Below, in pieces: positions 1 to 22,985 of a stretch of 64,000 nt of DNA. The stretch comes from Malacoraja senta (taxonomy: Eukaryota). The stretch's first letter is position 1. Each line of letters begins with the position of its first letter. The notes below the pieces were generated by a model, which was not told where the DNA came from, ran no database searches, and saw only the letters and a program-made list of their open reading frames with translations. The translations under genes and the position numbers were made by a program. The stretch is taken from assembly GCA_038087875.1 (NCBI GenBank), contig CM075989.1, positions 16,556,001 through 16,620,000 of the forward strand, read 5' to 3'.

Positions 1-1852
1 AGGTCAGCAAATTAAATTTGTCATAAATCAAAATAATGTTGTTTTATTATGTGGCACATTCAAACATCAAGCATGCAGCTCATGACTGGGCTCTTCACAT
101 TCAGGGTGTCAGTGTCTTGAGTTATTATTATTGCAAGATATCATTCTAATCACAGAGAAGGGGAAGCTTTGAGAGGTAACGGACTGCACATTTTAAAATA
201 CATTAAATTAACCTATTGGAGTTCAAAGCCTAGTTAAACCTCCTGTGATAAATACAATTATCATTAAAGATGTAACAATATCCTTTTGCACACAATAAAT
301 GATTAGGATGATTATTATTTCTCATGACATGCATTCTGCAAGCTAAGTAGAAAATTAATAGAAATTTATACCCATAACAATATTCCTTTCAAGTATATCA
401 TCAATCTATTGCATGAGAAAACAATCCAAATTATTTTGAGCAAATAGGGTGTGAAAAATATTCTTATACAAGACAGATTTGTTAATCTTTGAACCACTGC
501 AATACACATAATATATATCTTTTCTCCCATTTTGTCTTTATTTGTTTAAAAATATATATAAATATATTAAAAAATAAAGAGACAAAAAAAGTCAATATGG
601 GAGAGAAGGACCGCTGTCAACATCAAGAAATACCATGAATAGAATAACACAAGCCATAGTCTGGAATCATGGATCCATTGTATACAAATGGGCTAGTTTG
701 ACCTGGATGGTGTTGAACTTCATTAGAATTATTAATGCTGCATTCAACCAGGCATGTGGAGAGTATTCCACTGCACTCGTGATTTGTGCACATGATGGAA
801 AAACCATGTCAGGAGTCTCTCACCACAGGGTATCCAACAGCTAACATGCTCTGATAGCCATAGTACTTACATGGCTATGAGATCTCTGGTGAATGATGAC
901 TCCCGTAATGTTAATGAGACTGGGTGTAGTCCATGGTAACATCATGAAATATCAAAAGCAGCTGGTTGGACTCCCTCTTGTTAGAAAATGTCATTAATTG
1001 GCACTGTTGTGGCTGTAACATTACTTGCCCATGTTAGTAGCCCATGGCTGCACATTTTCTAGGTCTTGTTGCATGCAGACCTGGACAAGTCCATTTCCTG
1101 AAGAGCTGCAAATGAAACTGAACATTGTGCAACTATGACTGGACATCTTCATTTCTGACCTTTTCATGCAGTAACTGGTTCATCCCAGCTTCTGAAATGG
1201 TCTAGACTGAAACACAACAGATGGCACCTCATTTTTAGCTATGAAAATAGAAAATGTTGGAAACATTCAGCAGGTCAGGCAGCATCTGTGAAAAGAGAAA
1301 TTGTCAATGTTTCAAATCCTTGACCGTTCGGCAGAACTGGAAAGAGAGAAAACAAGTTAGTTTTTGTTGGCCAAGATGGTGGAAACAGGGAAGAGTAGAA
1401 CAAAAGGATTATCTTTGATAGAAGGCATCAAATCACATTTATTCTTAGATATGTTCGACGATGCTCCAGGCATAACCCTCTGTGTTTCTTGCAGAACCAG
1501 GGATTGCAATGGAATACATACCTGCATTGACACAGACCCTGGTCTGTACTTCTGACATTAAGTTGGTCTGTGAAAGCTCACAGAACTTAAAGATTACTTG
1601 CCGTTTCTGCATGCAGTTTCACCGATAAGGACTCCTTCATCCCCCCCTTAACATCAGAAGACTCAAGCTTTCATGCTCTGTAAATTTTGATTTATTGCCC
1701 CCTGGCTTGTTCAATAAAGGAAGATGAACCAAATACCTGATGAATAAACCCACCTCATGTGACCACCTTAAACGTGAACCAGACCTGTAATTCACTTTTA
1801 ACTGGTTCATTTTCCTACATCACGACTGAACACATCTTTTACGTACACTTAC

Positions 1853-2004
1853 TTTACATTTGTATTGGTGCAGATTATATATTCAATTTCATCCGAGTAA
1901 GGATTCTGGAAAGTAAAACTGCTTGTCCGTATCCATAACCATTCTCTGCCTTTTGTTCGGAAACGGTACATCACTGATAGGACTTGCCCTTTCAATTTCA
2001 CAAC
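1853..2004 (-). CDS. ARNT2: ARNT2 internal coding exon (152 bp; [51 protein letters not shown]), end of PAS-B/PAC
   Basis: aag acceptor and gtaagt donor. The peptide lies within ORF 1849..2061 and is the ARNT-family PAC segment. Confidence 0.96.
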
Positions 2005-2965
2005 CTTGATGAAAAAATAGAAAGAGTTATTAGATATATGGCATTCATGATTAATGAACATGAAACTAATGGATGATTTATAGTATAGATTTACTATAAT
2101 AAACTTGATTGTCTTGGCACATGACCTTGGCTAGGCCTCACTTTAAATGCTGTGCACAGATTTGATCTCCTTGCATTCTCTTCCACAGTAAATTTGCTGA
2201 TGTGGCAAAGCAAGTTAGGAGACTTGCAAACATATAGGGTTAGGTTAAGCAAATGGACAAAAAATTGTCAGATGAATTATAACTGTGGACTCACGGTTAC
2301 CCACTTTGGTAGGAAGGGAAAGGTAGAATGGTTAAAATGGAGTGAATGTTGCTATTCAGAGAGATCCTTGAAGTAGCTTGCAAATACAGATAGTAATTGG
2401 GTAGGAAAATGGAATATTGGCCTTTAATGAAAATGAGGCATAAAAATAACACTAAACTAGATAAACCATTGTTGAGTACAGCAAACAGATTTTGTCTCTT
2501 TATTTAAGGAGGGGATATAGTTGCATTAGAAGTTTAGCAGAAGTTTACTAGTCTAATTCCTAGCATAACAAAGTTATCTTATGATGAAAGGCTCAGCAGA
2601 TTTTGCTTATTTTCAATGATGTTTGGAAGAATAAGAGGTGACCTTACTGAAATGTATCAGGTTCTGAGGGGGCTTGACAAGATAAATGCAGGGAAAATAG
2701 CTCCATTTACGCGTCTTGAACAGGTGGGAATAGCTTTTGGACAAAGAAAACAGTTTAAGATGGAGTGCAAATCAAAATTCAAATAAAATTGCAGGTGTTG
2801 GAATCTTGATAAAAAATAAAAAAAAATTCATCCAGTCAAGCAGCATCCATGGAAAGAGAAACCAGTCAACATTTCTGGTGAGCGACCCTTGCTCAGAACT
2901 GTGGGACAGTGGAGGGTTTACAGTGTGCAAAGGAGAGCTGGATGGAGGTCTAAAATAAGAGCAAA

Positions 2966-4590
2966 CAGTGCCCCCCATAATGTTTGGGACAAAGACCCAT
3001 CATTTATTTATTTGCCTCTGTGTACTCTACAATTTGAGATTTGTAATAGAGAAAATCACATGTGGTAAAAGTGCACATGGTCAGATTTTATTAAAGGCCA
3101 TTTTTATACATTTTGGTTTCACCTTGTAGAAATTACAGCAGTGTTTATACATAGTCCCCCCCATTTCAGGGCACCATAATATTTGGGACACATTGCTTCA
3201 CGGGCATTTGTAATTGCTCAAGTGCCTTTAATTGCCTTCTTAATGCATGTATAAGAGAGCTCTCATTACCATCTTTCCTCCAGTCTTTCCATCACCTTTG
3301 GAAACTTTTATTGCTGTTTATCAACATGAGGACCAAAGTTGTGCCAATGAAAGTCAAAGAAGCCATTATGAGTCTGAGAAACAAGAATAAAACTGTTTGG
3401 AGACATCAGCCAAACCTTAGGCTCACCAAAATCAACTGTTTGGAACATAATTAAGAAGAAAGAGAGCATTGGTGAGCTTACTAATAGCAAAGGGACTGGC
3501 AGGCCAAGGAAGACCTCCACAGCTGATGACAGAAGAATTCTCTCTATAATAAAGAAAAATCCCCAAACACCTGTCCAACAGATCAGAAACACTCTTCAGG
3601 AGTCAGGTGTGGATTTGTCAAAGACCACTGTCCGCAGAAGACTTCATGAACAGAAATACAGAGGCTACACTGCAAGATGCAAACCACTGGTTAGGCATAA
3701 AAATAGGATGGCCAGGTTACAGTTTTAAAAGAGCAACCACATGTTCTGGAAGAAGGTCTTGCGGACAGATGAGACGAAGATTAACTTATATCAGAGTGAT
3801 GGCAAGAGCAAAGTATGGAGGAGAGAAGGAACAGCCCAAGATCCAAAGCATACCACCTCATCTGTGAAACACAGTGGTGGGGGTGTTATGGCCTGTGCAT
3901 GTTTGGCTGCTGAAGGTACTGGCTCACTTATCTTCATTGATGATACAACTGCTGATGGGAATAGCATAATGAATTCCGAAGTGTATATATACATCCTATC
4001 TGCTCAAGTTCAAACAAATGCCTCAAATCTCATTGGCCGGCAGTTCATTCTACAGCAAGCCAATGATCCCAAACATACTGCTATAGCAACAAAGGAGTTT
4101 TTCAAAGCTAAAAATTGGTAAATTCTTGTGTGGCCATCTCAATCACCCGATCTGAACCCAATTGAGCATGACTTTTATATGATGAAGAGAAAACTGATGG
4201 GGACTAGCCCCCAAAACAAGCATAAGCAATACAGGCCTGGCAGAGCATCACCAGAGAAGACACCCGGCAACTGGTGATGTCCATGAATCGCAGACTTCAA
4301 GCAGTCATTTCATGCAAAGGATATGCAACAAAACACTAAACATGACTACTTTCATTTACATGACATTGCTGTGTCCCAAACATTATGGTGCCCTGAAATG
4401 GGGGGCTATGTATAAACACAGCTGTAATTTCTACACGGTGAAACCAAAATGTATAAAAATGGCCTTTATTAAAATCTGACAGTGTGCAATTTAACCACGT
4501 GAATTTTTCTATTTCAAATCTCAAATTGTGGAGTACAAAGGCAAATTAATAAACGATGGGTCTTTGTCCCAAACATTATGGAGGGCACTA
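2966..4590 (+). mobile_element. Tc1-like DNA transposon, full length, decayed, with long IR/DR-type terminal inverted repeats
   Basis: Starts CAGTGCCCCCCATAATGTTTGGGACAAAGACCCATC; the reverse complement ends at 4590 and is followed by TA. Roughly 220-bp TIRs with an inner copy of the ccataat..tttgggaca motif. Confidence 0.93.
3326..4339 (+). pseudogene. Tc1 transposase pseudogene (frameshifts and stops)
   Basis: Fragments MRTKVVPMKVKE..., TDETKINL, VKHSGGGVM, QQANDPKH (catalytic D changed to A), SQSPDLNPIEH and GYATKH* are spread over several frames. Confidence 0.9.
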
Positions 4591-5232
4591 TATGTAGGGA
4601 TAGATTAAGAAGTTTAGTGCACAGGGATGACCCTAAACTTCTTGATGCATGCTACTTTAATCTGCAATCCTACTCCCATTCTGACATCTGCCTGTGGCTT
4701 CCACCGCTGACAGGGTGAGGTTAATATAAACTAAATGAAAAATATTTTATCTTCCATCTAGGCACTTTGACACCCTCTGGAATTTACAATGAATTCTCCA
4801 ATTGCAGATAAACACTTCTCAGGTTACACAGCAGAGCATATGGTTGTGGATGCAGTAGGAAGTGTCTATGCTGTGGCACATATGTCATCATAATTATATG
4901 GAACAGGCACTGTGGGCCAAAGGGCAGTTTCTAGCTTCTGAGTGTCTGGATGTATTTGTGCCATTGATTTGATTTGATCTGTTTGTGCTGCTTTTTTCAA
5001 TTCCAAAAACTTTTGAGCTCCCTTTTCAGACATGTAGCTGCCAGACATGTTGGAAGCAACACCAATGAATGATGAACAACCTGGCAAAGTTGCAAGGCAG
5101 GATATGTGCGCTAAACTTCAAAATCAACACGCAACTGACAGAGCTAATCAAAACCACAAAGAAACAAATCAAAGAAAGCTCTGTGAGTCCTGCACATTTA
5201 TGGAGAGAAGGCAGGAGAATGGGATTAGGAGA

Positions 5233-5396
5233 ATGTGTAAGAAAGAACTGCAGATGCTGGATTAAATCAAAGGTAGACACAAAATGCTGGAGTAACTCAG
5301 CGGGAAAGACAGCATCTCTGGAGAGAAGGAATGACCCATTCCTTCTCTCCTGAGATGCTGCCTGTCCCGCTGAGTTACTCCAGCACTTTGTGTCTC
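5233..5396. repeat. Penelope-derived short repeat in inverted (head-to-head) arrangement
   Basis: gacacaaaatgctggagtaactcagcggg... is followed by its reverse complement cccgctgagttactccagcactttgtgtc. The same family recurs many times in the window. Confidence 0.6.
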
Positions 5397-6854
5397 GCCA
5401 TGATTGAATGGTGGAGTAGACTTGATGGGCCGAATGGCCTAATTCTGCTCCTATCATTTATGGCCTTATGACATGACCAAGAACATCCTTCTTCTCAAAG
5501 ATGGCAGAACACAATGAGTGAGAGCTGAAATTAAAACAGGAAACACTGCAAGTTGCTTTTTAAGGTCAAGGTTTCAAGGTCAGTTTATTGTCACATGTAC
5601 CAATTAAGGTACAGTGAAATTCGAATGACCATACAGCCAGGCACGTGCCGTCAGGGTACTGCCTACCCTGACTAAAATTATAAAATGGTAATTATTAAAT
5701 ATAAATAGTAAAGGCATGGGAGAATAATGCCTACCTAAGAGATCGATCTCTTAGGTAGGCATAATTCTCCGTGCCTTTCATCCGCAGTGCATGTAAAACG
5801 CGAAGGTCTGTGCAGCCCAAGTGTCGTCTACGATGCTTCAAGCCGTCAATTTCCAGGGGACTGAAGGCAGCTGAAATTCTGCCTTTGCAGTACTGCGCAT
5901 GTGCAGCGCAAGTTTCTTGGCTGGTTTTTCAAACATGGATTGCCATTATCTTAAGAAACAAAGAGAGAAGAATGGAGTTTGTGTACAAATGATGTGGAAA
6001 GTAGATTTCTTGGTGCTATATGTTTTTAAATACCGTATTTCCCAGCAATGAAGACGCTATTTTTTACCCAAAAATAAGGCACGAAAATTTACATGCATCT
6101 TGGAAGCCGAAGTTGGAAGGTTGTTAGCCAAGAAATATAGACTGTCCCCACCAACCCGCACATAAAACAAGCTAAAGAACACTAAAAACATACATTTAAC
6201 ACATACAAACATACAACAAAAGAAGGAAGGAACAGACAGACTGTTGGCGAGGCAGCCATTGCCGGTGCCACCCGTTTGTTTTGATGCCAATTAAGAGAGA
6301 AATCATAGCTAAGCCATGTGGAGCAGTGTAAACAGAGGAAGATGAATAAGAGCGATAACAGAGAGATAAAGGCAACACACTTGGACATAAGAGGCTAAGC
6401 TCAGTAGATGCCAGAAATAGGAAATCAACGAGAATGTGGAAACATTCAACACATCAGGCAGGTTCTGTGGAGAGAAAGAAAGCTGACAATATCACAGATG
6501 ATGAATATATCAACACAGGTCAATTGTCTGGTAATCCTGTTTTCATTTCAGAGTTTGTCTTACCGATTTTTATTTTGGATTTCCAGCAGTTTTTATTCAG
6601 GTTTTCAATTGCATGCACCTGTAACATTAACTCAGTTTTTCCTCTCCATTGAGCAACATAGATCGCAAACTGTTTCCATAAATTACTTTAACTTCAGTTT
6701 TCCATTATGTATTATGCACCACTCAATTCTGGCATGTGAATTTTCCTTTCTCTAACTGCCCTTATTCAACTCCCTCTATTAATCTCCTCCAATCAGATCA
6801 GTTATGATTAACCAACATTCATTCCCATTGGGCAGCATAAAAGCAATATCTCAC

Positions 6855-8945
6855 AGATTTTCACTTTTGCTCTCCTTATCCCTTTCCCCCTCTGCCACTT
6901 CAAACATAGTTGTTTTCTCACTTTTTCATTCCTGATGAAAGGTCAATAACATCAAGTCAGAAATGTATTTATGTCACATGTACTGAAATCCTTACTTGCT
7001 GCCACTTTACAGGCACATTAGACTCAACAACAAAATATACAGTAAATTATCAATATTTCGAAGTAAACTAGACCATATTAGTACGCGGAGCAACCAGAGT
7101 ACTGCAAAGTCCACAATGGTTTGGTGCTGAAGTAATGTTGTGGTTAGGTTTGTGCAGGCTGGTTGATGGGAGGAACTCCTGATGGGAGCTCCTGAAACCT
7201 GGAGATAACAGTGATTCTCTGTCCCTTGTACCTTCCTCCCAATGGGAGCAGTGGGTAGAGAGATTGGCCAGGATGGTGCAGGTTTGAGATAATATTACCC
7301 TTCTTCTTGAAGGAGCGCTGCCTGTAGGCCCCTTCAATGGTGGGAAGGTCAGTGATGTTCTCGGCAATGTCCACCAGTTTCTAAAGCCTCCTTCATTCAA
7401 AGTTCTGAACCAAACCATGATGCAACCAGTCAATATGCTCTCCACAATATACCTTTGGAAGTTCAATAGAATATTCGGTAAGATGCCGAATCTCCTCAAA
7501 ATCTGGTGTGTTAGTCTTGTTGGTAAGACAGGATGTACCAAAGGAATGTAACTGAAGAGTCCGGTAGATTATCTCTGTGGAATCAGGGCATGAGCAATGC
7601 CTTGTTAGGCTTTTGCTTGACTGGTCCGACTAACTTGACTAACTCTTCTTATTTATAAAGAAGTCCCCAAACATTTGTGAGGATAATGCAAAATCAACTG
7701 GGTTTCGAGTGAATTTGATGTCTGCATTCGGTGCCAGTGTAAGTGCTTTAGGGTGCCAGAAAAGTGAATCACTAACCACAGGATACACAGTGTCTGATCT
7801 GCTCTTACAGCCACGATGTAAGTGTGACTGGTCCAGTTAAGCAACATGCCTGATGTTCCAAGCAGTTTTATTCCTTTTGCTTCAATGTAGTAATAACAAT
7901 ATAACCGAGTAGTTTGTTAGACCAGTTCAGAGCGTATTAAGAGGCAATCATTTGGGGTGGCCTGGAGTTATATGTGGGTCACAGCAGAAAGATGGCAAAT
8001 TTTCACAGCCATCATTATGAAGACTGGTTGGTGCTTTATCTCCAGATAACAGATTATTAACAGAATTCAAATTCCATGGCTTTGATGGTGGGATTTGAAC
8101 TTGGGTCTCTGGATCTTTACTTCAGGCCTCTGGATTACTCGTCTGGTAAATTAACTGCTCCATACCTTAGGGAGAAATAAAAGGCAGGTCCAGTAGGAAT
8201 GTGTGACGAGATGCAAATTTATGGTTAAAGTGATAGACTGAGGAGACTTTTGATTAGGATAACAGTGACAAAGTTAAGGGCTTCAAGGAGAGAAGTCAAA
8301 ATAAAATAATTATGAAATATGCTGACACCACAAGTCTGATGAAAGGTTTAGTATCTGAACTGTTAATTATTTCTTTTTCCATTGAAGTTGCTTGACCTGC
8401 TGAGTATTTTCAGCACCTTCTGTTGTTATTACTATAGTGTTGGGTTGGCATTATTGGCAAAGATAGATTTTGAAGCACATATGTCTTTCCATTTAATCAG
8501 TCTATCCCCTTCTGAAGTCTGTTAAAATTCTCCTCATTATTTCATTTCATATGGAAACTAGCATTTTATTCTATATCCTCATGTCCAGGACATTAATATA
8601 TGTCAATATATCAAATACCAAGGTCCTTCATAGAAGCCGTATCAAATACAATTCTAGCCATATAAAACAATAGTAGGTGAAATGGCCAAAAGCTTTATCA
8701 AAGAAACAGGTTTGAAAGAGTGGCTTCATAAGAGATTGAGAGGTAGATATTTGGAAGGTTTTTCTGAAGGAAACAAAGAGCTAAAGGGATTGGCATTTGA
8801 AGGGAAAGCAGCAAATAGTGATGAAAATTGGGAATGTCAGGGTTTTCTGAAGGTTGAATGGCTGAAGAGGTAGAGGGTAGCAAGGAAACAAACAGCAGAT
8901 CCGTAAGGTGAACAAATGTTGAATGTAGTGATATAGAGCTGAAGA
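6855..8945 (+). repeat. 2,091-bp direct repeat, copy 1 (immediately 5' of the L1)
   Basis: Matches 13555-15645 at a constant offset of 6700. I found only two differences by eye: 7241 A vs 13941 G, and 7908 A vs 14608 G. Confidence 0.97.
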
Positions 8946-11900
8946 CACATATATAAATTGTAACTGGGTGAAATAGAACTGAATTGGAAACGGTAATGAC
9001 CCCATAGATTTTGGGTAATAAATACAGCGGGGCTAACTTTATACCAACTACGCCGGAAGCGTTATGGATGTCGTACCCCACAGACGAGTGGGCCACTCAC
9101 TACGGTGTTGAAATTTTAGACACCGTAAATTTATTTGATTTATATATATTTTTTTTAATCACAATATGTCACATCTGTGTGTTTTTTCTTCAAGGACAAT
9201 CGCGCAGGAGAACTACCAAGGAAGTCTATAATAGAAATACTCCCAAAATAACCAGAGTCCGGAGGTATGAACGCACCACAATAATTAAGGTCATTAAAAC
9301 TGGTAAAAATGCATGACGACAATCAAAAGAAAATAGGAGGAATCACATTATGTAGTTGGAATATAAGGGGGATTAATGAACCTATTAAAAGGGGCAAGAT
9401 ACTAGCTCAGTTGAAATCATACAACACGGACATTGCGTTTCTACAGGAAACACATCTTAAACAGCAAGATCAGACAAGACTGAGGGCGAACTGGATAGGC
9501 CAAACATTTCACTCTTCATTTACCTCCAAATCTAGAGGTACTGCAATTATTATTCGTAAAGGAATTCCATTTAAATCAAAGAACACTATTTTAGATAAGG
9601 AAGGGAGATATCTTATAGTAGCAGGGGAGATCAATAATATGCCAATTACGCTGGTAAACATATATGCGCCCAACTTTGATAACCCTCAATTTTTTAATAA
9701 AATTCTGAATATAATTGCAGAATCTAATTATCAAAATGTTATAATCGGAGGAGATTTTAATTGTGTTTTAGATCCTTATTTAGATAAATCGATGCAAAAA
9801 CAAAAAGGTCAGACGAAATCTAAAACCAGTGAACTCTTACACACATATATGGAAAACACAAATATAACAGATGTATGGAGGATTGCAAACCCGACGGGAA
9901 GGGATTACTCGTTTTATTCAATGGTGCATAAAACATATTCACGGATAGACTATTTTCTTGTGGATACAAAATTAATTTCGCAATCTCTGAATCCTAAATA
10001 TCATATTAATGCGATCTCAGATCATTCTCCGTTAACTTTTGTTCTAAAACTAGAAGGAATGTCTATGAATAAACCGTTCTGGAGGTTTAACTCACAAATT
10101 TTAAAAGACCCTCAAGGGAGTATCTATCTAAAAAAACAGATGGATCTATTTTTTGAGTTAAATGATACACCAGAGATATCCCCCACGTTATTATGGGAAT
10201 CCTTCAAAGCATTTATAAGAGGAGTCATTATTTCATTTCAAGCTTATCAAAATAAAAAGAATAAGAATGAACAAAGACACTTAGAAGATCAAATAAAACA
10301 GTTAGATATAGATAATGCTAAAGACCCAACTATGGATAAACATAATAAAATACTACTACTGAAATTTCAGTTAAATAAATTACTGTCAGAGAAAGTTATA
10401 ACATTATTTCAAATCACAAAACAAGAACACTTCGAATTCGGGGACAAACCCCACAAACTTCTAGCACGACAACTTAAAAAACGGGAAAAAGAGAATGCAA
10501 TATTAAAGATTAAATCAGATAGAGGGGAAGTATTAACACTACCCAAGGATATTAATAAAAGATTTGCTCAATTTTACCAGAATCTATACACATCTAAAAC
10601 GTCAATAGACAATAATAAAATCTCAGAATTTTTAGATAATTGTAATCTACCACAATTAGAACGCAGGGAACAAGAGGAACTGGGAGCACAAATTACTTCT
10701 AAGGAGATAGAAGACACAATAAAAACACTAAAAAATGGAAAAACACCAGGACCAGACGGATTCAGTAATGAATTTTATAAATCTTTTTATGATATAGTTA
10801 CTCCACGATTACAAAAAATGTATACATATGCTTATAAAGAGCAAAACCTACCTGAAACACTAGCGGAATCAACGATCATATTAATACTTAAAAAAGATAA
10901 AAATATAGAAGAACCAGGATCATATAGAGCTATTGCTTTGTTAAATACGGATCAGAAAATAATAGCAAAAACTTTAGCCAACAGATTAAGCAAGTATGTT
11001 AGTAGACTAATACATGAGGATCAAACAGGATTTATACCTAAGAGACACTCATTTAATAATTTGAGACGTTTGCTTAACATAATGCATTCACATAAATCTG
11101 ATGACCAAGAGTTAGCTATCATCTCACTGGACGCAGAAAAAGCGTTTGATCAAGTAGAATGGGACTATATGATCAAAGTATTGCAAAAATTCCAATTGGG
11201 AGAAAACTTTATTGCATGGATAAAACTACTATATAACAAACCTACGGCTAGAATACTAACTAATAATATATTATCTTCAAAATTCGAATTATCTAGGGGC
11301 AACAGACAAGGATGTTCACTATCACCGCTGTTATTTGCTTTGGTAATTGAACCCCTTGCTGAAAAAATAAGAACACACTCGAATATTCACGGTTATAACA
11401 CAAAATATTCAAACAACAAACTATCCCTATATGCTGATGATGTACTACTGTACATCACAAAACCACAAATTAGTATACCAAATATATTAAACTTAATTGA
11501 GGACTTTGGATCCTTTTCAGGATATAGAATAAATTGGAACAAAAGTGAAATTATGTCGATTAAACCAAAAGACTCAACACATCTCAGGAAATTCCCTTTT
11601 AAAATAGCTATGGAAAAATTCAAATATTTAGGAATTGAGATTACTAGAAATTACCATGATATGTTTAAAGCTAATTATAATCCCCTACTTAAGAAATTAA
11701 ATAATCTGATTAAATTTTGGAAAACACTTCCGATGTCCTTAATAGGTAGGATAAATGCTATAAAAATGATTTTCTTGCCACAAATCCTTTACCTATTTCA
11801 ATCAATACCTATATATCTCCCAAAAAAGTTTTTCAAAAAACTGGACTCAGACATTACAAATTTTATATGGGATTACAAATCCCACAGAATACAAAGAACA

Positions 11901-13555
11901 CACCTTAACAAACGAAAAGAGTTGGGGGGTCTAGCGCTCCCTAACTTTATGTATTATAACTGGGCAGTAAATATTAAAAATATGATTCACCTGCTGGACA
12001 ATTCTGCCCAGCAGGTGGACTGGATTATAATGGAAAAAGGGGATTGCTCCCCGAATAATATAGGAGCGATTATTCTCTCTCCAATAAATTTGAATAATAA
12101 AAATTATAATAAAAATCCAATTATATATAGCACTATTAGAACATGGAAGCAAATAAAACAGAATCTAAAATTAAGAAACCTATCTCTCTTAATACCAATA
12201 GTCAATAACCCATCGTTTAAACCTTCAATCATAGATAAAGCATTTATACAATGGGAAAGAATGGGAATTAAAACGCTCGAAGATCTGTATGAATTAGAAA
12301 AATTACTATCATTCCAACAACTACAACTGAAATATAATTTGAAAAATAATCAATATTTTAAATATCTACAAATCTGTGACTATTTGAAAACACACACAAA
12401 AGATTATTATAATATGCCTTCCGACTTACTAGATGAAGCAATGAAGACAAAGGCGGAATCAGTTAATTTAATATCATACTTATATAATATCATCTTAAAT
12501 ATAGAAATACCCACAACAGATGGAATTAGAAGAGATTGGGAACAAGATCTAGGTATAAAAATTTCAAAAGAGAGTTGGGATAATCATTTATTACAGGTGC
12601 ATAAATGCTCGATCAACGTACGACATACGCTTATCCAATTTAAAACATTACATAGATTATATTATTCAAAAACCAAACTAAATAAAATCTTTCCTAACGT
12701 CTCACCAATCTGTGATAAATGTATATGTCAAGAAGCTACCATAGCACATTCTTTTGTTTTTTGTACAAAAATCCAAAAATTCTGGTTTGAAATATTTGAT
12801 ATTTTTTCAAAATTAATCAAAATAAAACTGGTACCAAAACCAGAATGGATTATTTTTGGAATATCGGAAGGTATTCCTGAATTAAACGTGTATCAGAAGA
12901 ATTTACTCAATTATGGGCTAATAATGGGAAAAAAGCTTATACTTAAATTCTGGAAAAATGCGCCCACACCAACAATAAAAATGTGGACATCAAATATGTT
13001 GGAAACATTACATCTGGAAGAGATGAGATTCCTCCTAGTAGGCAAAGTAGATCAATTTCAAAAGACGTGGTCTACGTTTTTGGACCTATTACAAGCATGA
13101 GGTGCAATAGTAATTTAGAAAAACAAATAAATAAATAAAAGGTATCTGGACCTGGTAATGGGAGGTAAAATAAAAACAGACTTGGTTGGTAGTTCCTTCT
13201 CTATGAAGTATGGTATAAGAATTATAATAGAGCGATTGTTCCTTCTTTCTTTCTCTTTTTTTTTCTAGGGTCTATTTTCTAACTTTACTTCCTTCTCTAA
13301 CTTCTTTTCTAAGGGGCTTTCTTTTCCCAACACTCTTTTGCACTTCACAACCTTTGTGCACTTTCTTCACTTTTCTTACTTCTTTCTTTTTCTTTCTTAA
13401 AGTTTAAAAAAGTGAAGCGGTACAAAAAATGTATTAATATATACGTGTTGTACATTACTGTAATCTACCGTACTTCTAAAAAATAAAAAATAAAAAAATA
13501 AAAATAAAAAAAAAAAAGAAAAAAAAAATAAAAATAAAAAAAAAAAAAAAAAAAA
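8946..13555 (+). mobile_element. L1-clade LINE, 5'-truncated (ORF1 absent), with intact ORF2, 3' UTR and an A-rich tail of about 78 nt
   Basis: ORF2 at 9309-13100, T-rich 3' UTR, A-rich tail at 13478-13555. Antisense to ARNT2. Confidence 0.95.
9309..13100 (+). CDS. L1 ORF2p (APE endonuclease, reverse transcriptase and C-terminal CCHC), 1263 aa, uninterrupted
   Basis: Endonuclease motifs SWNIRG, LQETH, GGDFN, SRIDY and SDHSP; RT motifs PGPDGF, SLDAEKAFD, RQGCSLSP, YADD and KYLGI; zinc knuckle CDKC...H....C. Confidence 0.96.
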   Translation: MHDDNQKKIGGITLCSWNIRGINEPIKRGKILAQLKSYNTDIAFLQETHLKQQDQTRLRANWIGQTFHSSFTSKSRGTAIIIRKGIPFKSKNTILDKEGRYLIVAGEINNMPITLVNIYAPNFDNPQFFNKILNIIAESNYQNVIIGGDFNCVLDPYLDKSMQKQKGQTKSKTSELLHTYMENTNITDVWRIANPTGRDYSFYSMVHKTYSRIDYFLVDTKLISQSLNPKYHINAISDHSPLTFVLKLEGMSMNKPFWRFNSQILKDPQGSIYLKKQMDLFFELNDTPEISPTLLWESFKAFIRGVIISFQAYQNKKNKNEQRHLEDQIKQLDIDNAKDPTMDKHNKILLLKFQLNKLLSEKVITLFQITKQEHFEFGDKPHKLLARQLKKREKENAILKIKSDRGEVLTLPKDINKRFAQFYQNLYTSKTSIDNNKISEFLDNCNLPQLERREQEELGAQITSKEIEDTIKTLKNGKTPGPDGFSNEFYKSFYDIVTPRLQKMYTYAYKEQNLPETLAESTIILILKKDKNIEEPGSYRAIALLNTDQKIIAKTLANRLSKYVSRLIHEDQTGFIPKRHSFNNLRRLLNIMHSHKSDDQELAIISLDAEKAFDQVEWDYMIKVLQKFQLGENFIAWIKLLYNKPTARILTNNILSSKFELSRGNRQGCSLSPLLFALVIEPLAEKIRTHSNIHGYNTKYSNNKLSLYADDVLLYITKPQISIPNILNLIEDFGSFSGYRINWNKSEIMSIKPKDSTHLRKFPFKIAMEKFKYLGIEITRNYHDMFKANYNPLLKKLNNLIKFWKTLPMSLIGRINAIKMIFLPQILYLFQSIPIYLPKKFFKKLDSDITNFIWDYKSHRIQRTHLNKRKELGGLALPNFMYYNWAVNIKNMIHLLDNSAQQVDWIIMEKGDCSPNNIGAIILSPINLNNKNYNKNPIIYSTIRTWKQIKQNLKLRNLSLLIPIVNNPSFKPSIIDKAFIQWERMGIKTLEDLYELEKLLSFQQLQLKYNLKNNQYFKYLQICDYLKTHTKDYYNMPSDLLDEAMKTKAESVNLISYLYNIILNIEIPTTDGIRRDWEQDLGIKISKESWDNHLLQVHKCSINVRHTLIQFKTLHRLYYSKTKLNKIFPNVSPICDKCICQEATIAHSFVFCTKIQKFWFEIFDIFSKLIKIKLVPKPEWIIFGISEGIPELNVYQKNLLNYGLIMGKKLILKFWKNAPTPTIKMWTSNMLETLHLEEMRFLLVGKVDQFQKTWSTFLDLLQA

Positions 13556-15645
13556 GATTTTCACTTTTGCTCTCCTTATCCCTTTCCCCCTCTGCCACTT
13601 CAAACATAGTTGTTTTCTCACTTTTTCATTCCTGATGAAAGGTCAATAACATCAAGTCAGAAATGTATTTATGTCACATGTACTGAAATCCTTACTTGCT
13701 GCCACTTTACAGGCACATTAGACTCAACAACAAAATATACAGTAAATTATCAATATTTCGAAGTAAACTAGACCATATTAGTACGCGGAGCAACCAGAGT
13801 ACTGCAAAGTCCACAATGGTTTGGTGCTGAAGTAATGTTGTGGTTAGGTTTGTGCAGGCTGGTTGATGGGAGGAACTCCTGATGGGAGCTCCTGAAACCT
13901 GGAGATAACAGTGATTCTCTGTCCCTTGTACCTTCCTCCCGATGGGAGCAGTGGGTAGAGAGATTGGCCAGGATGGTGCAGGTTTGAGATAATATTACCC
14001 TTCTTCTTGAAGGAGCGCTGCCTGTAGGCCCCTTCAATGGTGGGAAGGTCAGTGATGTTCTCGGCAATGTCCACCAGTTTCTAAAGCCTCCTTCATTCAA
14101 AGTTCTGAACCAAACCATGATGCAACCAGTCAATATGCTCTCCACAATATACCTTTGGAAGTTCAATAGAATATTCGGTAAGATGCCGAATCTCCTCAAA
14201 ATCTGGTGTGTTAGTCTTGTTGGTAAGACAGGATGTACCAAAGGAATGTAACTGAAGAGTCCGGTAGATTATCTCTGTGGAATCAGGGCATGAGCAATGC
14301 CTTGTTAGGCTTTTGCTTGACTGGTCCGACTAACTTGACTAACTCTTCTTATTTATAAAGAAGTCCCCAAACATTTGTGAGGATAATGCAAAATCAACTG
14401 GGTTTCGAGTGAATTTGATGTCTGCATTCGGTGCCAGTGTAAGTGCTTTAGGGTGCCAGAAAAGTGAATCACTAACCACAGGATACACAGTGTCTGATCT
14501 GCTCTTACAGCCACGATGTAAGTGTGACTGGTCCAGTTAAGCAACATGCCTGATGTTCCAAGCAGTTTTATTCCTTTTGCTTCAATGTAGTAATAACAAT
14601 ATAACCGGGTAGTTTGTTAGACCAGTTCAGAGCGTATTAAGAGGCAATCATTTGGGGTGGCCTGGAGTTATATGTGGGTCACAGCAGAAAGATGGCAAAT
14701 TTTCACAGCCATCATTATGAAGACTGGTTGGTGCTTTATCTCCAGATAACAGATTATTAACAGAATTCAAATTCCATGGCTTTGATGGTGGGATTTGAAC
14801 TTGGGTCTCTGGATCTTTACTTCAGGCCTCTGGATTACTCGTCTGGTAAATTAACTGCTCCATACCTTAGGGAGAAATAAAAGGCAGGTCCAGTAGGAAT
14901 GTGTGACGAGATGCAAATTTATGGTTAAAGTGATAGACTGAGGAGACTTTTGATTAGGATAACAGTGACAAAGTTAAGGGCTTCAAGGAGAGAAGTCAAA
15001 ATAAAATAATTATGAAATATGCTGACACCACAAGTCTGATGAAAGGTTTAGTATCTGAACTGTTAATTATTTCTTTTTCCATTGAAGTTGCTTGACCTGC
15101 TGAGTATTTTCAGCACCTTCTGTTGTTATTACTATAGTGTTGGGTTGGCATTATTGGCAAAGATAGATTTTGAAGCACATATGTCTTTCCATTTAATCAG
15201 TCTATCCCCTTCTGAAGTCTGTTAAAATTCTCCTCATTATTTCATTTCATATGGAAACTAGCATTTTATTCTATATCCTCATGTCCAGGACATTAATATA
15301 TGTCAATATATCAAATACCAAGGTCCTTCATAGAAGCCGTATCAAATACAATTCTAGCCATATAAAACAATAGTAGGTGAAATGGCCAAAAGCTTTATCA
15401 AAGAAACAGGTTTGAAAGAGTGGCTTCATAAGAGATTGAGAGGTAGATATTTGGAAGGTTTTTCTGAAGGAAACAAAGAGCTAAAGGGATTGGCATTTGA
15501 AGGGAAAGCAGCAAATAGTGATGAAAATTGGGAATGTCAGGGTTTTCTGAAGGTTGAATGGCTGAAGAGGTAGAGGGTAGCAAGGAAACAAACAGCAGAT
15601 CCGTAAGGTGAACAAATGTTGAATGTAGTGATATAGAGCTGAAGA
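13555..15645 (+). repeat. 2,091-bp direct repeat, copy 2 (immediately 3' of the L1 poly-A tail)
   Basis: Begins at the last A of the tail (agattttcacttttgc) and ends ...gagctgaaga, the same boundaries as copy 1. Confidence 0.97.
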
Positions 15646-17444
15646 TGGTCAAAGTGAGGCTGCACAGAATTTGAAAGTGAAGATATTATAAACTGAATGA
15701 ACTCCCCAAACTATCCCCTTTAAAAAGGAAGATAAAATTCTACTTGTCTTGTCAGTCATGTTCTTTGTTCCCAGATTGATTACAAAGAGTGTCTTTTGAT
15801 TTTCAAAACTTGCGATTAGAGGCTCGAAAAAACGTCCCTTGACCAACACCCTTGAAAGAACAGAAACAGACACTGCGCCCTTTCACAGGATCACAAAAGA
15901 CACACGAATTCTGAGTTCCCAGATCAAGGGCTTCCGATTACACAACAGATAAATCTGATGATACCGTTCCATGTTATTCTTGGCCCCAAGTATGCAATAC
16001 ATAGGTCCAAGTTTCCCACTGCAGTTCATATCGTTTTCTTTCCTAGGAAAATAAACGTGAACACAATGCTTACAGGTTCAAAACCAGATGTCCATTTGTT
16101 TCACATTCCTCTCTTCCTCGTTGCATGTTATCAAATCTCTGATAACACCAGCAGCTCAGGCTAGGTCAGAAATAACTTTATGGATGCAAGAACAAAGTGT
16201 TGAATGAGGGGCTCGGATAAAATTTGTATTTTTCTCCAGCTACATTGTAACGCCAGTGAAAACAACATTGCCTACAGTGCTGCTCTCCAAACTAAGCACG
16301 GTGTTTTAACTGATAAGATTGGTGTATAATGGAAAGATTGAATGAGACGCATGCTCAATAATAAAGTGCATGAATATATTGCCGGATGCATTATGTTACA
16401 AAATAGATTGATTAAAGACACTGTAGTTAAGGAATCTGTTGAATTCAAGGGTGCTGGTCAAGGTTGTTTTGGCTGAAACAGCATTCAGGGCCATTATTTC
16501 ATCTTAAAAAATGGGGAAAAAAGGGAAAATAGGAAAATTGAAATAAATTATACTTAAATATCAGGAGAGGAGGGCTTAAGGTTGTTTACAAACAATTAGG
16601 TAGTTTAGATGTTTTGCACAGGATACAGGACATGATATATGGTAGCCTATTTGCAGAAAGTAAGATCCTACAAATAGCATTGAGATAATAGCCATGCTCG
16701 CCTATGCCTCTATGCTCCTTGCTGGTCAACTTGACTTCTGTGCTGGGGCTTTGAAAAAGGTCAAGTCAGCGGCATGAAGAAGGCTAGATGCAAGCACATT
16801 TGACCTTCCACTCTATAGCTGGGCTCCCCTTTAAATCCAGTAGCACTGCAATAACTGCTGAGCTAAGAGACCAGACACATTTTGTTGAAATGCCTCAGTT
16901 TTATGCGAGCAAATTAAGGGCAGTGCAATCCGTGAAGGAGTCAGAGCTTATTCATTTTACTTGATTCTATCTTAATGTTGTTAATTATTTCTAATTATTT
17001 CAAGTAGTTTACTTCATTTTTAAATTAAATTGCTTTACATTTTTACTTTATTTGGAAACATTTCCAATAGTCTTAAATGTCTCCAATTATCCGATCCAGG
17101 ATTGCAACCCTGTTATAAACCATCACAGTGTCTGTGATGGATCCCATTGGAGGGCTAGTCACCACTTGTGACCTGCTCCAGCTCGAGAGGGGCTTGCCAA
17201 GTACAGAAGATTGCTAGTAAGATTAAACGAGAACTTACCTAAGTTTGAAGTTTGATCTTTATTTTATGAGGAGTTACGTAGGTGATTACGTGAAGAACCC
17301 CGCCAGTGCGCCTGCGCGTCAATCTTCAAAGCAGCGGTGTGAAATCACAAAAAACAACAACCGAAGTAATATAGTCTCATAATAAAACGAGTAATACAAG
17401 AACTTCCATCTGACCTTTATGATAGAGGGTAGGGTCGTGGTGGG

Positions 17445-17558
17445 CACGTAATCACCTACGTAACTCCTCATAAAATAAAGATCAAACTTCAAACTTAGGT
17501 AAGTTCTCGTTTAATCTTACTATTTTACTTCGGAGTCACGCGAGTGACTACGTGAAGA
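17445..17558. repeat. DIRS internal complementary region (ICR)
   Basis: 17445-17522 is the reverse complement of 17215-17292. 17522-17558 is the reverse complement of 21902-21938 with one mismatch. Confidence 0.93.
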
Positions 17559-17726
17559 TTTTAAAGCTTTGTGATTTCATGCCGTGGATCAATCCCGGCT
17601 TCTCACTGCATAGATTGACTCGGAACGAGAATAATCAATCATGCATTCATAATAACATTTGTACCACAAATGCAGTAATTCATTTCAATAATGAAATGAA
17701 TCAGATCCCCTTTAAACCAGAGGAAT

Positions 17727-18660
17727 TTACACAGAACTTAAAATAGTTTCTGCAAACAACCCCGCATTAACAATAGGCCGATGGTAAAAATGTTGAAACA
17801 TCAACTCATTGGACCACCCGGCGGCTGCGAGGATATGGTCGACGGGGCCATCTTTTGCCCTGGCCGCCGACGTTTCTGCTGCCCTAGTCGAGTGAGACGT
17901 AAAAACATAAGTGTTAATACCAGCAGCTGTTAAGACTTCTTTTATCCATCTGGAAATAGTCTGTATTGAAACTCTCTTGTGTGGTTTCTTGTGTGTGATC
18001 AACAACCCAGTTTCCGTATTCTCAAATTCTTTGTGACCTCAATGTATTGTAATAAATATGTCTTAATACAGAGACATGGATCATTTGGATATGCTGCTAG
18101 CATAATTTTAAATCCTGTCACACCTGGCCTAATTTACTTTAGTAGGTCATAGATATAGAATGTAACCTTGTCTTCAGTTACTTCCATACTATCTATTTGT
18201 AATTTTCCAAGTGTTTGCACTCGTTGTGCTGTCACTCATGCCATAAGCATGAATACTTTCATACTGAACTTGACCAAAGGTAAAGACACACTTGATGACC
18301 ATTCACGAAGTAGTTTCAGTACCACACTTACATCCCAGATTGTCACGTACCTAGGTTTCGGTGGTTTGGAATTAAAGATTCCTTTCATTAGTCTGGAAAC
18401 AATTGGGTGTGACCCAATTGCGTTTCTTTCTGAATCCAGAACCAAATATGAGGACAATGCACTTCTGGCTGAATTAATTGCACTACAACTCAGACCTTCA
18501 TCATAATAAAGTTTTGACAGAAATTCTAAACATTTGAAATATCTGCAGTACTTTATTGCACATTCTTTTGTACACAGAACTCTTCCCATTTCTTAATATA
18601 AGAAAGGTACTATTTTTGAGTGCTCTTCCTCCCGGCTGCCGTAAGCATGTCCACAGTATG
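17727..18660 (-). pseudogene. DIRS tyrosine recombinase, frameshifted
   Basis: INSARSALS, HPIVSRLMKGIFNSKPPKPRY..WDV, TISRWIK, FTSHSTRAA and AAAGWS...F..FY motifs. Confidence 0.88.
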
Positions 18661-18797
18661 CTCAGACAGTCCTCGTCCCAGAAAAGGCATTCTTAAAATC
18701 TGCAAATCAACAAATCCAAACGATGATATAATGGATGTTGTTACCCTGTTACAGGGTGCAGCAATAAATTACTCCTTTTTGGGACTTTCATCAACAT

Positions 18798-20200
18798 TTA
18801 TGTTGTTAATTCTAATATCAACATATACCATGGCTGTATAGGCCAATCTGGTACTACCAACACCCTTGAAGCAGCATCTTGCCTGATTTTAAGCAAACAT
18901 TGGCTTATGAGGCAGAAAGGTGGAAATATATATGAAAACATACCACCCCAATGTAGCGAGAAAGCATCAATCGCCACTGCTCCTGGATCTGGTTTCCATG
19001 AGACATATCTCGATAGCTCATGATTCAAGTCGATGTCGGTCATTCCAAATCTGATTACTATATCATTGAATACCTCTTGATTCAACATCCATTCTTTATT
19101 ATCATGGAACTTTTCGTGACCAGGTGTCTGCTATCATGTTCATTCTACCTGGTAGATAGATAGCTGAAATCCAAATGTTCTTTTCAATACACCAAGACCC
19201 AAGTTGATTTAACCATTTTGTCACATGACACCGACTTAATTCCACCCATATCATTAATATAGGCAACTACTGTTGTATTTATTAATTTGAACTTGAACCT
19301 TCCTTTTAGTTGTGTTAGAACCATAAGCTTGGAGTCCATAGAAACCTCTTAAAAGCTCCAAATAGGTAATTCCCCATGTCTGCAGTAACACTAACTTTTC
19401 CTGATTCCATCTGCCTCCGCAGCTCCATGTTAAGTCAGTTGCACCCCATCCTAGTGCACTGGCATCAGTTTGTAATATCATGGAAGGTTGTTCAATCAGC
19501 ACTTTGCCTGAACTGCTTGAGACATGTAGAATCCACCACTGCAGCTTAGAAACAGCATTTGTTGTTACTTGCATGGTTCTATCAAAATGACCAGCATTTA
19601 CTCTCAGTGCCTGTTCTTTAATTCTCTGCAGCTGTTGATAATGTAATTGTCCATACTGGACTGCTGGGAATCTACTAATTTTCCCAGTACTCGAGCCACC
19701 TGTCTGATTAGAGGTTTTTGCTCGTTTAACAGATTACTGTAATCTTTACTCAACTCCACCCTTTTTTCACTGGGCAAAGTAATTTGCATTTGGGCTAACT
19801 CAATTGTGAACCCCAAATAATCAATCGAGGTACATGTTTTTAACCTTGATTTCTTTGGATGAATTTAGAAACCCCCAAACTTTCAAAAGTTTGATTTTAT
19901 TACTGCAACCGATGCTTCTGTTGACTGTTTTGTCCTTCCTATAATCAGGACATCATCCAGGTATGCCATTAGTACATGCCCCTGGCTCTCAGCAACCCCA
20001 GAATTGATTTTTATGAATATTCTGGAAGGGACGTTAACCCTTTAGGCAGAGCTTTGAACTGCCCTAATTGGTTCATCCATGTAAATTTAAAATACTTCAT
20101 ATCTTGCAAATGAACAGACACTGAACAAAAGGATTCAGACTTGTCAAGTCTATAATAATCCTACATCCTCCATCCTTTTTTGATCGAGGGAATATATTTG
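18798..20200 (-). pseudogene. DIRS pol remnant: RT, RNase H and DNA N6-adenine methyltransferase-like domain (left boundary from the ORF track, right boundary approximate)
   Basis: MAYLDDV near 19960, LQTDASALGWG (RNase H), and DAFSLHW...YIFPPF...VVPDWPIQPWY (MT-like domain typical of DIRS1). Confidence 0.85.
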
Positions 20201-20282
20201 ACCCAAATTGGTGAATTTGGTAGACTGATTCTTTAATAACACCTTTTATATATAGGGTTTTGAAGCGCAACTTGAACCTCCA

Positions 20283-21727
20283 TTACTTCGCAAAGTGTAG
20301 AGTTCTGCTAGGAACATGCTGGACAGGCAAATCATAATTTGGATTGAATTCAATTCGAAATCCTTGTATATTATTCAGAATTACCACATCTGAAGTACTC
20401 TTCTTCCAATGTTTATAGAAGAGACGTAATCTGCCTCCAACTTTTGGACTTAATCCAGTTAGTATGTTCCCCTGAGAACCAGGTCCACCTACCTCTTGAG
20501 TCATTTGAGTATTCTGAGATCCCTGGATTCTCCCAGAAGCACAACCACTGGTCCTTACTCCCGCTGCAGGCCGCCAGCTACGTCCCTGCGTTGATGAGCG
20601 ACTTGGTCCTGGTCTAGGATCCGTATGACGTCTGAAAGGATACTTCCTCTTTACAGACTTTGCAACCATTGATGTATTTATCAATCCTGTTTTCGCTTCA
20701 TCTTCCAACTCTTTAATAAGTCTCCCGAGATCCTCTCCAAAGAGTAAGTTGGGTAATTGTATATTACTTGGTTTGCAGAGTGCTGCGAATTTTGGATTCA
20801 TAGTAGGCCGTATAGCACTTTCCTCAGATAATTGATCTCGAAGTGGGTGCTGCATAGCAACCCCAGTGCTTGCTGATGCAACTTCGTCATCTTTTGGTTG
20901 TTACCTGCTATTCTGGTAAAAGCAGTTATTCCAGAACCCAGCAGCTTTAATATTCTATGCAACTGATTCCAGATAATTTGGTTCACTGCTGCTGCTTTCA
21001 GCAACCCACAGTTACTTCTTGCAGTCTCATCCATTTCCTGCTGTTCCAGCTAATGGTAAACCAAGTAATTTATTAAGGAGGCCAGTTCTTCTCCTAATGG
21101 CTCTCCTGACCCTGACGGGGCAGCGAATCCTACTGCCAGGGGTGGAACATCTGGCAGCTGCCGTTCATCGCTTTGTACAGCCTCACCGTCAGAGTCGGGG
21201 TCTGAAATCTCATGACCCGTAGCACGCTCCTCATTCCTGAGGGTGCATTCCATCAGCCCTGAGCCAGGTGCTGTTAAGCTGCTCCTGCAGCTTGGATTAC
21301 AGTACACTCCTTCCTGAGTGAACTTTGCTCCAACAGCCTATAAAAAAGGCTTTCTATTTGGGCAATACGCTCGAAAGCAGTATCTAGCCCTGTACCAGGA
21401 GCTGTTTGAGCTGTTTCCAACAGCTTGGCTTTCAGTACACTCCTCCTTGAGTGAACTTTGCTCCAACAGCCTGTGTAAAAGGCTTTCTCCCTAGAGCTAC
21501 TTCCATTGCCTGGGACTCCCTCCGTGGGCCGTTGGGATTTAAACGTTGTCTTTTGCCCGACAGGCGCTGACTGTGTTTTCACCAGCCCCAGGTCCACAGT
21601 CGCTATGCTCACCGCTGGCGACTGTACCGGGGTTTAGAGGCGGTTGGTCTCTAACCGCGGACTCCCGACTTTCCCGACTTTCTGTCGGCTGTGTCGCTCG
21701 CCTCTTCCCCCTGTCCGTTTTTTCCAT
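20283..21727 (-). pseudogene. DIRS gag-like ORF1 remnant, fragmented
   Basis: Sits 5' of pol. Fragments AVNQIIW, IRPTMNPKFAALC and LLFGEDL resemble DIRS ORF1; VGGRLRLFYKHW marks the start of pol. Confidence 0.7.
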
Positions 21728-22011
21728 GGCGTCTGTGGAAAAAATCCGCATAGACCCACAGTAAACGGACCTGGAAAACATGAAAAAAGTTTTTACTTAC
21801 CTTGTAGTTGAAAAACTACAAACCACTGTAGGAGCTCTGCTCCTCACGTCCGTTTGCGTCAAGGCGTCTGACGTAATGACGCGCAGGCGCACTGGCGGGG
21901 TTCTTCACGTAGTCACTCACGTGACTCCGAAGTAAAATGCTCTGTATCTGGATCAAGTTGGCGCAGTGGGCCAGGTCCAGTACAATCCGACCTAACCTGT
22001 TTAAAGACTTA

Positions 22012-22487
22012 AGGGCCTGTCCCACGAGCATGCGACTGCATGCGGCAAGTGCGACCTAACCGGAAGCGGGGGCCGCGCGGAGGTCGAGTGATCCCCATAC
22101 AGGGCCGGTCCCACCAGCATGCAACTGCATGCGGCGAGCGCGACCAAACCGGAAGCGGGGGCCGCGCGGTGGTCGAGTGATTGACGTGAAGATCGAGCGA
22201 AGTCCGTGGGAAGTTCACGCGTGACGTACGGCGTCAAGATGCTGCGCACGCCCGTCAAGGCGGTGCGTACGGCGTCGAGGCGGCTGCGGGCCGGCAGCCC
22301 ATTGCCGCGCGGGATTTTTGAACAGTGTCAGTTTTTCGGAGCCCCACGCGATGTTGGGACCAGCTCCGCACAACTCCATACGGCTCTGGCGATCGAAGTG
22401 GGACAGGCCCCGCGAGGCCGTACGGCTCAAGCGACCACGTTAGGTCGCGCTTGCCGCATGCAGTCGCATGCTCGTGGGACAGGCCCT
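22012..22487. mobile_element. GC-rich MITE, PIF/Harbinger-like, with TTA TSD
   Basis: Termini AGGGCCTGTCCCACGAGCATGCGAC... and ...GTCGCATGCTCGTGGGACAGGCCCT, with TTA on both sides (22009-11 and 22488-90). Contains an internal repeat of the subterminal unit. Confidence 0.85.
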
Positions 22488-22490
22488 TTA

Positions 22491-22600
22491 TCTGATAAGT
22501 GCAGCACTCCCTCATTACTGCATTGAAGTGTCAGCCTGGGTTATGTGTTCAGAATTTTGGAGTGGGACTTGAGCCATGACCGTTAGTCTCAGAGGGGAAA
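22491..22600 (-). mobile_element. Deu-domain SINE remnant (SacSINE/AmnSINE-like)
   Basis: gtgcagcactccctcattactgcattgaagtgtcagcctg...gagtgggacttgagcc resembles the reverse complement of the DeuSINE core, as recalled. Confidence 0.6.
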
Positions 22601-22985
22601 AAAACACAAACTGCGTAATTAAAATGTTGTATGTTGGAATAAGGAACAAACCTCTTTAATCACTCGCTCATCATGTGCGAAATCTGCCAATGGTTTGATA
22701 GTAGATATTGATATATTCCTCAAAATTGATTTAGGAAAATAACAGTGCTCCAAATGATAGTTGGTACATATATACCAAATCAATCTGAGATGAAAGTAGA
22801 CCAGTAATGAATCTTTTAAAGGTTAAATATTTGTGCTAGGTTCTTAACCATAAGTAATGAAGTCACTTTAAAGTTTAGTTTAAGAGAATTGTTTGCACAT
22901 AATGTGCACTCAAGCTTGAGTTGTGGGATCAGGTATTTCACTCACAATTGTATTTCACTCATAACACCAATTCTAAAAATAGGTT

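Follow-up and report, generated by a model that had tools for sequence, protein, structure and literature searches.

Long target-site duplications as a heavy tail of L1 insertion in Malacoraja senta

Target-site duplications (TSDs) of hundreds to thousands of base pairs are best known from engineered human L1 elements in HeLa and related cells, where insertions show an endonuclease-type first nick and an A-tail, and up to ~10% of TSDs exceed 100 bp (Gilbert 2002/2005 and Symer 2002, as cited in PMC5223499, PMC4805530, PMC2912911, and PMC4245944). TSDs longer than 50 bp have been noted at an appreciable rate solely in HeLa cells, inherited, de novo, and somatic human insertions having canonical sizes alone, and large TSDs have so far been regarded as peculiar to transformed or repair-deficient cells (PMC4805530). 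Here we describe a young, 5′-truncated L1 of Malacoraja senta that lies between the two copies of a 2,091-bp direct repeat, together with a survey of its sister insertions. The locus falls within a 64,000-nt stretch of contig CM075989.1 without any N, which we call the window and whose positions serve as coordinates. This kind of L1 outcome is already known, but the setting is new: here it is inherited, frequent, kilobase-scale, and present in several L1 families of one genome.

The copies studied here match the HeLa insertions in first nick, tail, and TSD length, and differ in being endogenous and inherited (they are polymorphic and ageing) rather than engineered. All six full-length HeLa inserts had TSDs of 10–17 bp, whereas two of our long-TSD cases are full-length. 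Cells deficient in nucleotide excision repair (NER; XPA, XPC, XPD) likewise give TSDs of up to several kilobases at typical endonuclease sites (PMC5223499), but as the majority outcome, against 10.5% here with the canonical peak intact. Tandem duplications of 1–10 kb in cancers and L1-induced clones have the same structure and have been termed large TSDs (10.1101/2024.12.14.628481); they are somatic and rarer than deletions, and our survey covers duplications alone. Zebrafish ZfL2-2 in chicken DT40 cells gave one 1,228-bp TSD among 25 inserts (PMC2666801), also kilobase-scale, but as a single event of an L2-clade element in cultured cells. HERV-K (HML-2) offers inherited oversized TSDs of 250 and 111 bp (PMC5488345), which are isolated, much shorter than those described here, and made by an integrase mechanism. 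As for expected sizes, 51 de novo Alu insertions in sperm had TSDs of 8–18 nt (PMC12633430), and ORF2p itself nicks 7–19 nt away (PMC7617806). A genome-wide human survey took only TSDs of 5–30 bp (PMC2912911), and a long-read survey gives only the median (PMC12350158). In the literature available to us we found no reported rate of long TSDs in inherited copies like the 10.5% seen here, and two further sources (PMC5381506 and 10.1101/522623) added nothing; an in vivo fish survey may exist, and human surveys have often limited TSD length.

The window locus reads flank, repeat, 5′-truncated L1, A-rich tail, repeat, flank, with all features on the forward strand. The upstream TSD copy (6855..8945) consists of 2,091 bp of host sequence that includes decayed repeats, and the downstream copy (13555..15645) is of equal length; the downstream copy thus begins where the A-tail ends and the upstream one stops at the L1 5′ junction, and the repeat is by far the longest self-match within the window. 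The L1 itself (8944..13477) lacks the 5′ untranslated region and ORF1, and its body start is given as 8944/8946, since its truncated 5′ end and the end of the TSD have a 2-nt microhomology, GA (8944..8945), in common. A 78-nt A-rich tail follows (13478..13555), and its last A doubles as the first TSD base. Self-alignment finds two substitutions (7241/13941, A/G; 7908/14608, A/G) and no gaps over the 2,091 bp, so that the order, the base-exact edges, and the two substitutions reported in the initial annotation are confirmed, with the GA microhomology at the 5′ junction. The putative first-nick site, CTCAC/AGATTT (6850..6860), fits the relaxed pyrimidine/purine, A-rich preference of the family (see below).

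A contig of the same assembly, C4592, is colinear with window positions 1–8945 and 13555–22645 at 99.3%–99.7% identity and holds a single copy of the repeat and no L1; it represents the empty allele. Both window copies share ten differences from it and each carries one private change (G>A at a CpG, 7241, in the upstream copy; A>G at 14608 in the downstream copy). A merge of two haplotypes is thereby excluded, since one of the copies would then agree with the other allele, which is true of neither. Short-read contigs from four public runs, X19 and X20 of the best-matching organism and X1 and X4 of relatives (~95%–97% alike), also pass 8945 into non-L1 DNA, from which we conclude that the L1 is polymorphic and that its absence is the ancestral state. 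The empty allele predicted by the initial annotation, with one copy and no L1, is therefore at hand, and its view that the repeat is not a long terminal repeat also holds: the assembly contains the 646-nt end of the repeat at three places only, the two window copies and C4592, and sister L1s have different flanking repeats. Taken together, the window L1 is probably a recent, polymorphic insertion with a true 2,091-bp TSD.

The window insert corresponds to bases 2042–6576 of a 6,581-nt full-length sister, with 99.85% identity (seven mismatches). Its open ORF2 (9309..13100; 1,263 aa) encodes an APE endonuclease, a reverse transcriptase, and a C-terminal Cys/His motif; it contains the Pfam domains Exo_endo_phos and RVT_1 and matches human L1 ORF2p (8sxt) over residues 12–1257 with E = 1e-186, compared with only 2e-22 for R2. 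ORF1 of the full-length sister L073 (331 aa) resembles human ORF1p (2ykp; E = 4e-6), and a Pfam scan of it gave no match. Other L1-clade traits are present as well, namely a 3′ A-rich tail, variable 5′ truncation, eight inverted copies, and a modal TSD in the usual 7–20 bp range (peak 14–15). The family is large and young, with 1,162 exact 3′-end matches in the 1.94-Gb assembly (a count that takes in alternate contigs) and 40 matches at 100% over 771 nt. The inter-ORF spacer of L073 is ~1.2 kb long and contains a diverged 250-bp internal repeat; the spacer of mammalian L1s is short.

To the 38 best hits of the family we added 80 copies in position order on contig C1, giving 118 fetched sisters (17 of the first 100 listed family positions were left out of this set). 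Four were dropped before counting: L030, the same locus as L029; L108 and L109, in a gap-side duplicated cluster; and L112, with a gap at its 5′ junction. L029 and L030 (G000:C2 113.39 and 113.48 Mb), like L186/L187 and L195/L196, form near-identical region pairs tens of kilobases apart, which are either recent segmental duplications or uncollapsed haplotypes. Among the 114 counted sisters, 83 have TSDs of 8–19 bp, five have TSDs of 30–64 bp (one doubtful, in a satellite), and 12 have TSDs longer than 100 bp (10.5%; 95% confidence interval 5.6%–17.7%). The long TSDs measure 160, 308, 356, 398, 447, 452, 902, 1,172, 1,230, 2,767, 3,252, and 3,891 bp, five of them above 1 kb, and the rate is consistent between the two sets (4/37 best-hit and 8/77 position-ordered copies). 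All 12 repeats align end to end; with the window they show nine mismatches in 17,426 bp, and the geometry, a repeat reaching from the tail end to the 5′ junction, is the same at the 12 loci, L089 having 63 nt of filler between. The remaining 14 sisters could not be assigned a TSD; by eye several look short, blunt, or like small deletions, and in ten of them 8–20 kb of upstream DNA was searched and held no long repeat. L094, L144, and L127 had just 1.8–4 kb of upstream DNA, yet short TSDs are apparent. Because 11 full-length copies on C1 had only ~1.85 kb upstream, the long-TSD fraction is a lower bound. Duplicated DNA averages ~135 bp per insertion, and TSDs longer than 25 bp follow a log-uniform spread in length (Kolmogorov–Smirnov p = 0.74) with no second mode.

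The initial annotation had asked whether sister copies would show a reproducible excess of TSDs above 100 bp, and they do (12/114). Its stronger suggestion, that sisters generate kilobase duplications as a rule, is not supported, given the 83 canonical TSDs; nor was its proposed duplication of exons seen: when 90 ORFs from the long TSDs (11 of these taken whole, L073 and L103 by half) were scanned against Pfam, only two weak transposon hits came back. Long TSDs are a heavy tail of ordinary L1 insertion and not a fixed family trait, as indicated by a shared nick motif, longer microhomology, a restriction to long inserts, and their spread over the tree. In a tree of the 3′ 2-kb sequences, long-TSD copies are scattered and sit beside identical short-TSD sisters, and no age difference between long- and short-TSD copies was detected (p = 0.77), nor a depletion of inversions in the long class (0/12, against eight inverted copies in the family; p = 0.6). 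The first-nick score is 3.1 for the long class and 3.4 for the short class (p = 0.55), against −4.7 for random sites, which implies that both classes start with the L1 endonuclease. The score of the window nick site lies at the 34th percentile among sites used by the family and at the 97th among random ones. Its 3′ junction (CAC/AGATT), previously read as unusual, is normal for the family: 73 of the 83 short-TSD sisters have a pyrimidine/purine nick site, and just five have the exact TT/AAAA.

We propose that a long TSD arises when host repair or replication, rather than a nearby second nick, completes the insertion kilobases away, a reading to which we assign a probability of roughly 0.6. ORF2p would nick the bottom strand and begin reverse transcription as usual. 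In a smaller share of events, chiefly slow ones or ones with long cDNAs, the top-strand cut 8–19 nt away would fail, and the cDNA end might then use 1–7 nt of microhomology to pair with a distal host strand end 0.1–4 kb downstream, in some cases following a brief templated detour. Displacement or break-induced synthesis would copy the interval from the pairing point to the nick, so that the L1 ends up with it on either side; break-induced replication has been proposed for the 1–10 kb L1 tandem duplications (10.1101/2024.12.14.628481). Template switching followed by host synthesis is favored by the shared nick site, the absence of a distal motif, the microhomology, the insert lengths, the log-uniform spread, and the L089 filler. 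No endonuclease-like motif was detected at the distal TSD end (p = 0.67, n = 13). Among filler-free truncated copies, 5′ microhomology averages 3.0 nt in the long class (n = 9) and 1.2 nt in the short class (n = 55; p = 0.005), and zero microhomology is found in 0/9 and 22/55 copies, respectively. The template of the 63-nt filler at L089 lies 25–90 bp to the left of the nick and 2.8 kb away from the join, which points to polymerase template switching at a long-TSD junction.

Several observations weigh against this reading. The microhomology comparison includes just nine long-TSD loci. Long TSDs occur in 12 of 69 inserts of at least 2 kb (~17%) and in 0 of 45 shorter ones (p = 0.003; all 12 inserts exceed 2.1 kb), but the 2-kb cut-off was picked after the data had been seen and the effect fades with stricter ones (2.5 kb, p = 0.03; 3 kb, p = 0.13). 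There are exceptions, too, a 61-bp TSD on a 137-nt insert and a 138-bp TSD on a 549-nt older L1, and among the 13 long cases TSD length does not track insert length (rho = 0.31, p = 0.30). Taken by itself, the sequence would fit either template-switch synthesis or a distal nick with unwinding.

The second of these, in which the proximal nick fails, an unrelated top-strand nick falls 0.1–4 kb downstream, and the DNA between the two nicks is unwound by helicases or displacement, is the most serious competitor, though we consider it unlikely. It would leave an identical end product and fits the missing distal motif, and a distal-nick model has been proposed for NER-deficient cells, where the median TSD is 1,495 bp (PMC5223499). 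Here it would imply weak NER-type processing of the target-primed reverse transcription flap in the host germline. Yet NER-null cells give 57%–91% TSDs above 100 bp (PMC5223499), against 10.5% here with the 13–16 bp peak intact, and neither longer microhomology nor templated filler is predicted by this model alone. The assembly does contain an XPC-type Rad4 exon, whose open frame covers 321 aa. This and the dominance of the short peak make a full NER defect unlikely; a search of the assembly for XPA gave no match, but neither did the control queries.

A property of fish-type L1 proteins could also be invoked, with ORF2p alone jumping, after a long cDNA, to downstream host DNA and copying back to the nick. 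That long TSDs were found in L1 families and none in CR1 speaks for this, as does the fact that two of the 12 long-TSD copies are clean and full-length. A second L1 family, ~80% identical and with 3,496 exact ends, has TSDs above 100 bp in two of 28 distinct copies (433 and 199 bp, both long inserts; 30 were fetched, including two near-identical pairs, and a 92-bp match at L199 that ends at a gap was not counted), and two more L1 copies met in flanks have TSDs of 399 and 138 bp. These, with the scatter over the tree, also leave the earlier idea that the mechanism is peculiar to one lineage unsupported. In CR1 there was no TSD above 100 bp among 26 young copies, nor among 63 ends with at least 2 kb upstream; this control is weak, the copies being short with only ~9 of 2 kb or more, and with so few it cannot separate element from host. 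(Neither L236, where a tandem duplication takes in the element end, nor L218, which lies within a tandem SINE unit, was counted as a TSD.) Against an effect of ORF2p alone stand the near-identical short-TSD sisters of long-TSD copies throughout the tree and the finding that the same human L1 has differing long-TSD rates by cell line, which implicates host factors (PMC4245944). We regard this explanation as improbable, clearly more so than a distal nick.

Far less credible is that a tandem duplication came first, or followed an ordinary insertion, and that the L1 merely sits at its junction. Unrelated tandem duplications do occur in the assembly: L236 (G000:C1:2868144-2874143) is a 2,632-bp duplication whose copies are 99.9% alike; it takes in the 3′ end of a CR1, and its junction is free of L1. 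But the window repeat is single-copy in the empty allele and in both relatives (X1 and X4), no additional short TSD is present at any of the 13 long-TSD junctions, and 12 of 114 insertions falling base-exactly at duplication junctions would be implausible, so that this explanation is already largely refuted. The weakest, that two haplotypes or overlapping contigs were joined around a heterozygous L1, can draw on gap-side false duplications known around these L1s (C1 55.28–55.30 Mb) and on the filled window junctions being seen in the assembly only, but we find it scarcely tenable, as the window is gap-free, its two copies carry ten common differences from the other haplotype, junction homology of only 0–7 nt is too little for an overlap join, two long-TSD cases finish at the true L1 5′ end, and contig depth appears doubled at L123 in other samples. 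The gap-side cluster in question (G000:C1:55280577-55305000; L107–L109 and L177) consists of a 200-N gap surrounded by two near-identical L1s, a 3′ piece in inverted orientation, and a repeated 1.8-kb stretch of flank, and is probably a scaffolding artefact.

At L123, which has a 1,172-bp repeat, contig depth inside the repeat is 51–56 in X20 and 4.9–5.9 in X19, compared with single-copy depths of 30.8 and 3.57, or ~1.4–1.8-fold, although contig depth is not copy number. The relative X1 shows no increase (20–26 versus 30.4 single-copy), and one X19 contig stops exactly at the repeat edge. These depths are suggestive, and only that, of two repeat copies in other samples. Counting against true duplication, one X20 contig crosses the L123 repeat edge unbroken, and among the contigs listed none bridges the L1 junction with 31 letters per side. 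At the window the filled junctions are seen in the assembly only, X19 and X20 showing just the empty site, and a search of contigs of the same genome found no alternate alleles of L089, L103, or L123.

Some further elements came to light in the window and at the surveyed loci. Positions 22983–24567 of the window hold a Tc1/mariner transposon with an open 343-aa transposase and ~200-bp inverted repeats, and 17215–22600 a decayed element, which we take to be DIRS-like, with a tyrosine-recombinase remnant (17730–18038; Pfam Phage_integrase, E = 3e-5), reverse transcriptase-like fragments, and inverted terminal repeats. L140 and L171 (G000:C1 ~108.35–108.37 Mb) mark a tandem array with a period of ~1,360 bp and at least eight open 360-aa frames, 99.4%–99.8% identical to each other and resembling L1 ORF1 of another family; the array sits upstream of an ORF2 piece hit by a young L1 insertion. 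At L008/L047 (G000:C10 ~23.889 Mb), the L1 body is separated from an 11-bp TSD-like repeat by ~1,381 nt of additional sequence, made up of a fragment of an older L1 and an inverted 5′ segment from the same family, possibly a multi-switch chimera. L058 (G000:C5 ~1.07 Mb) has several long open frames, presumably retroviral gag/pro/pol-like.

Second-strand resolution is still an unsettled part of L1 insertion. We give even odds to the broader proposition that germline L1 insertion in this genome is a routine source of inherited local duplication, affecting ~10% of insertions and ~17% of those above 2 kb, over 0.1–4 kb and in several families, far above the mammalian germline rate. If true, the large-TSD pathway ascribed to HeLa cells alone would be a natural, heritable mutational process, and some 65–205 young examples in one family would be available for dissecting second-strand resolution; our estimate of ~120 (1,162 × 10.5%) would make a large in vivo junction set for tests of models. 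Should mammals match this rate once the length limit is lifted, the present view of TSD sizes would be an ascertainment effect. For the genome that carries these elements, L1 insertion would be an added route to kilobase copy-number gain, invisible to pipelines built on short TSDs, and the paired repeats predict the precise loss of some L1s through recombination between them.

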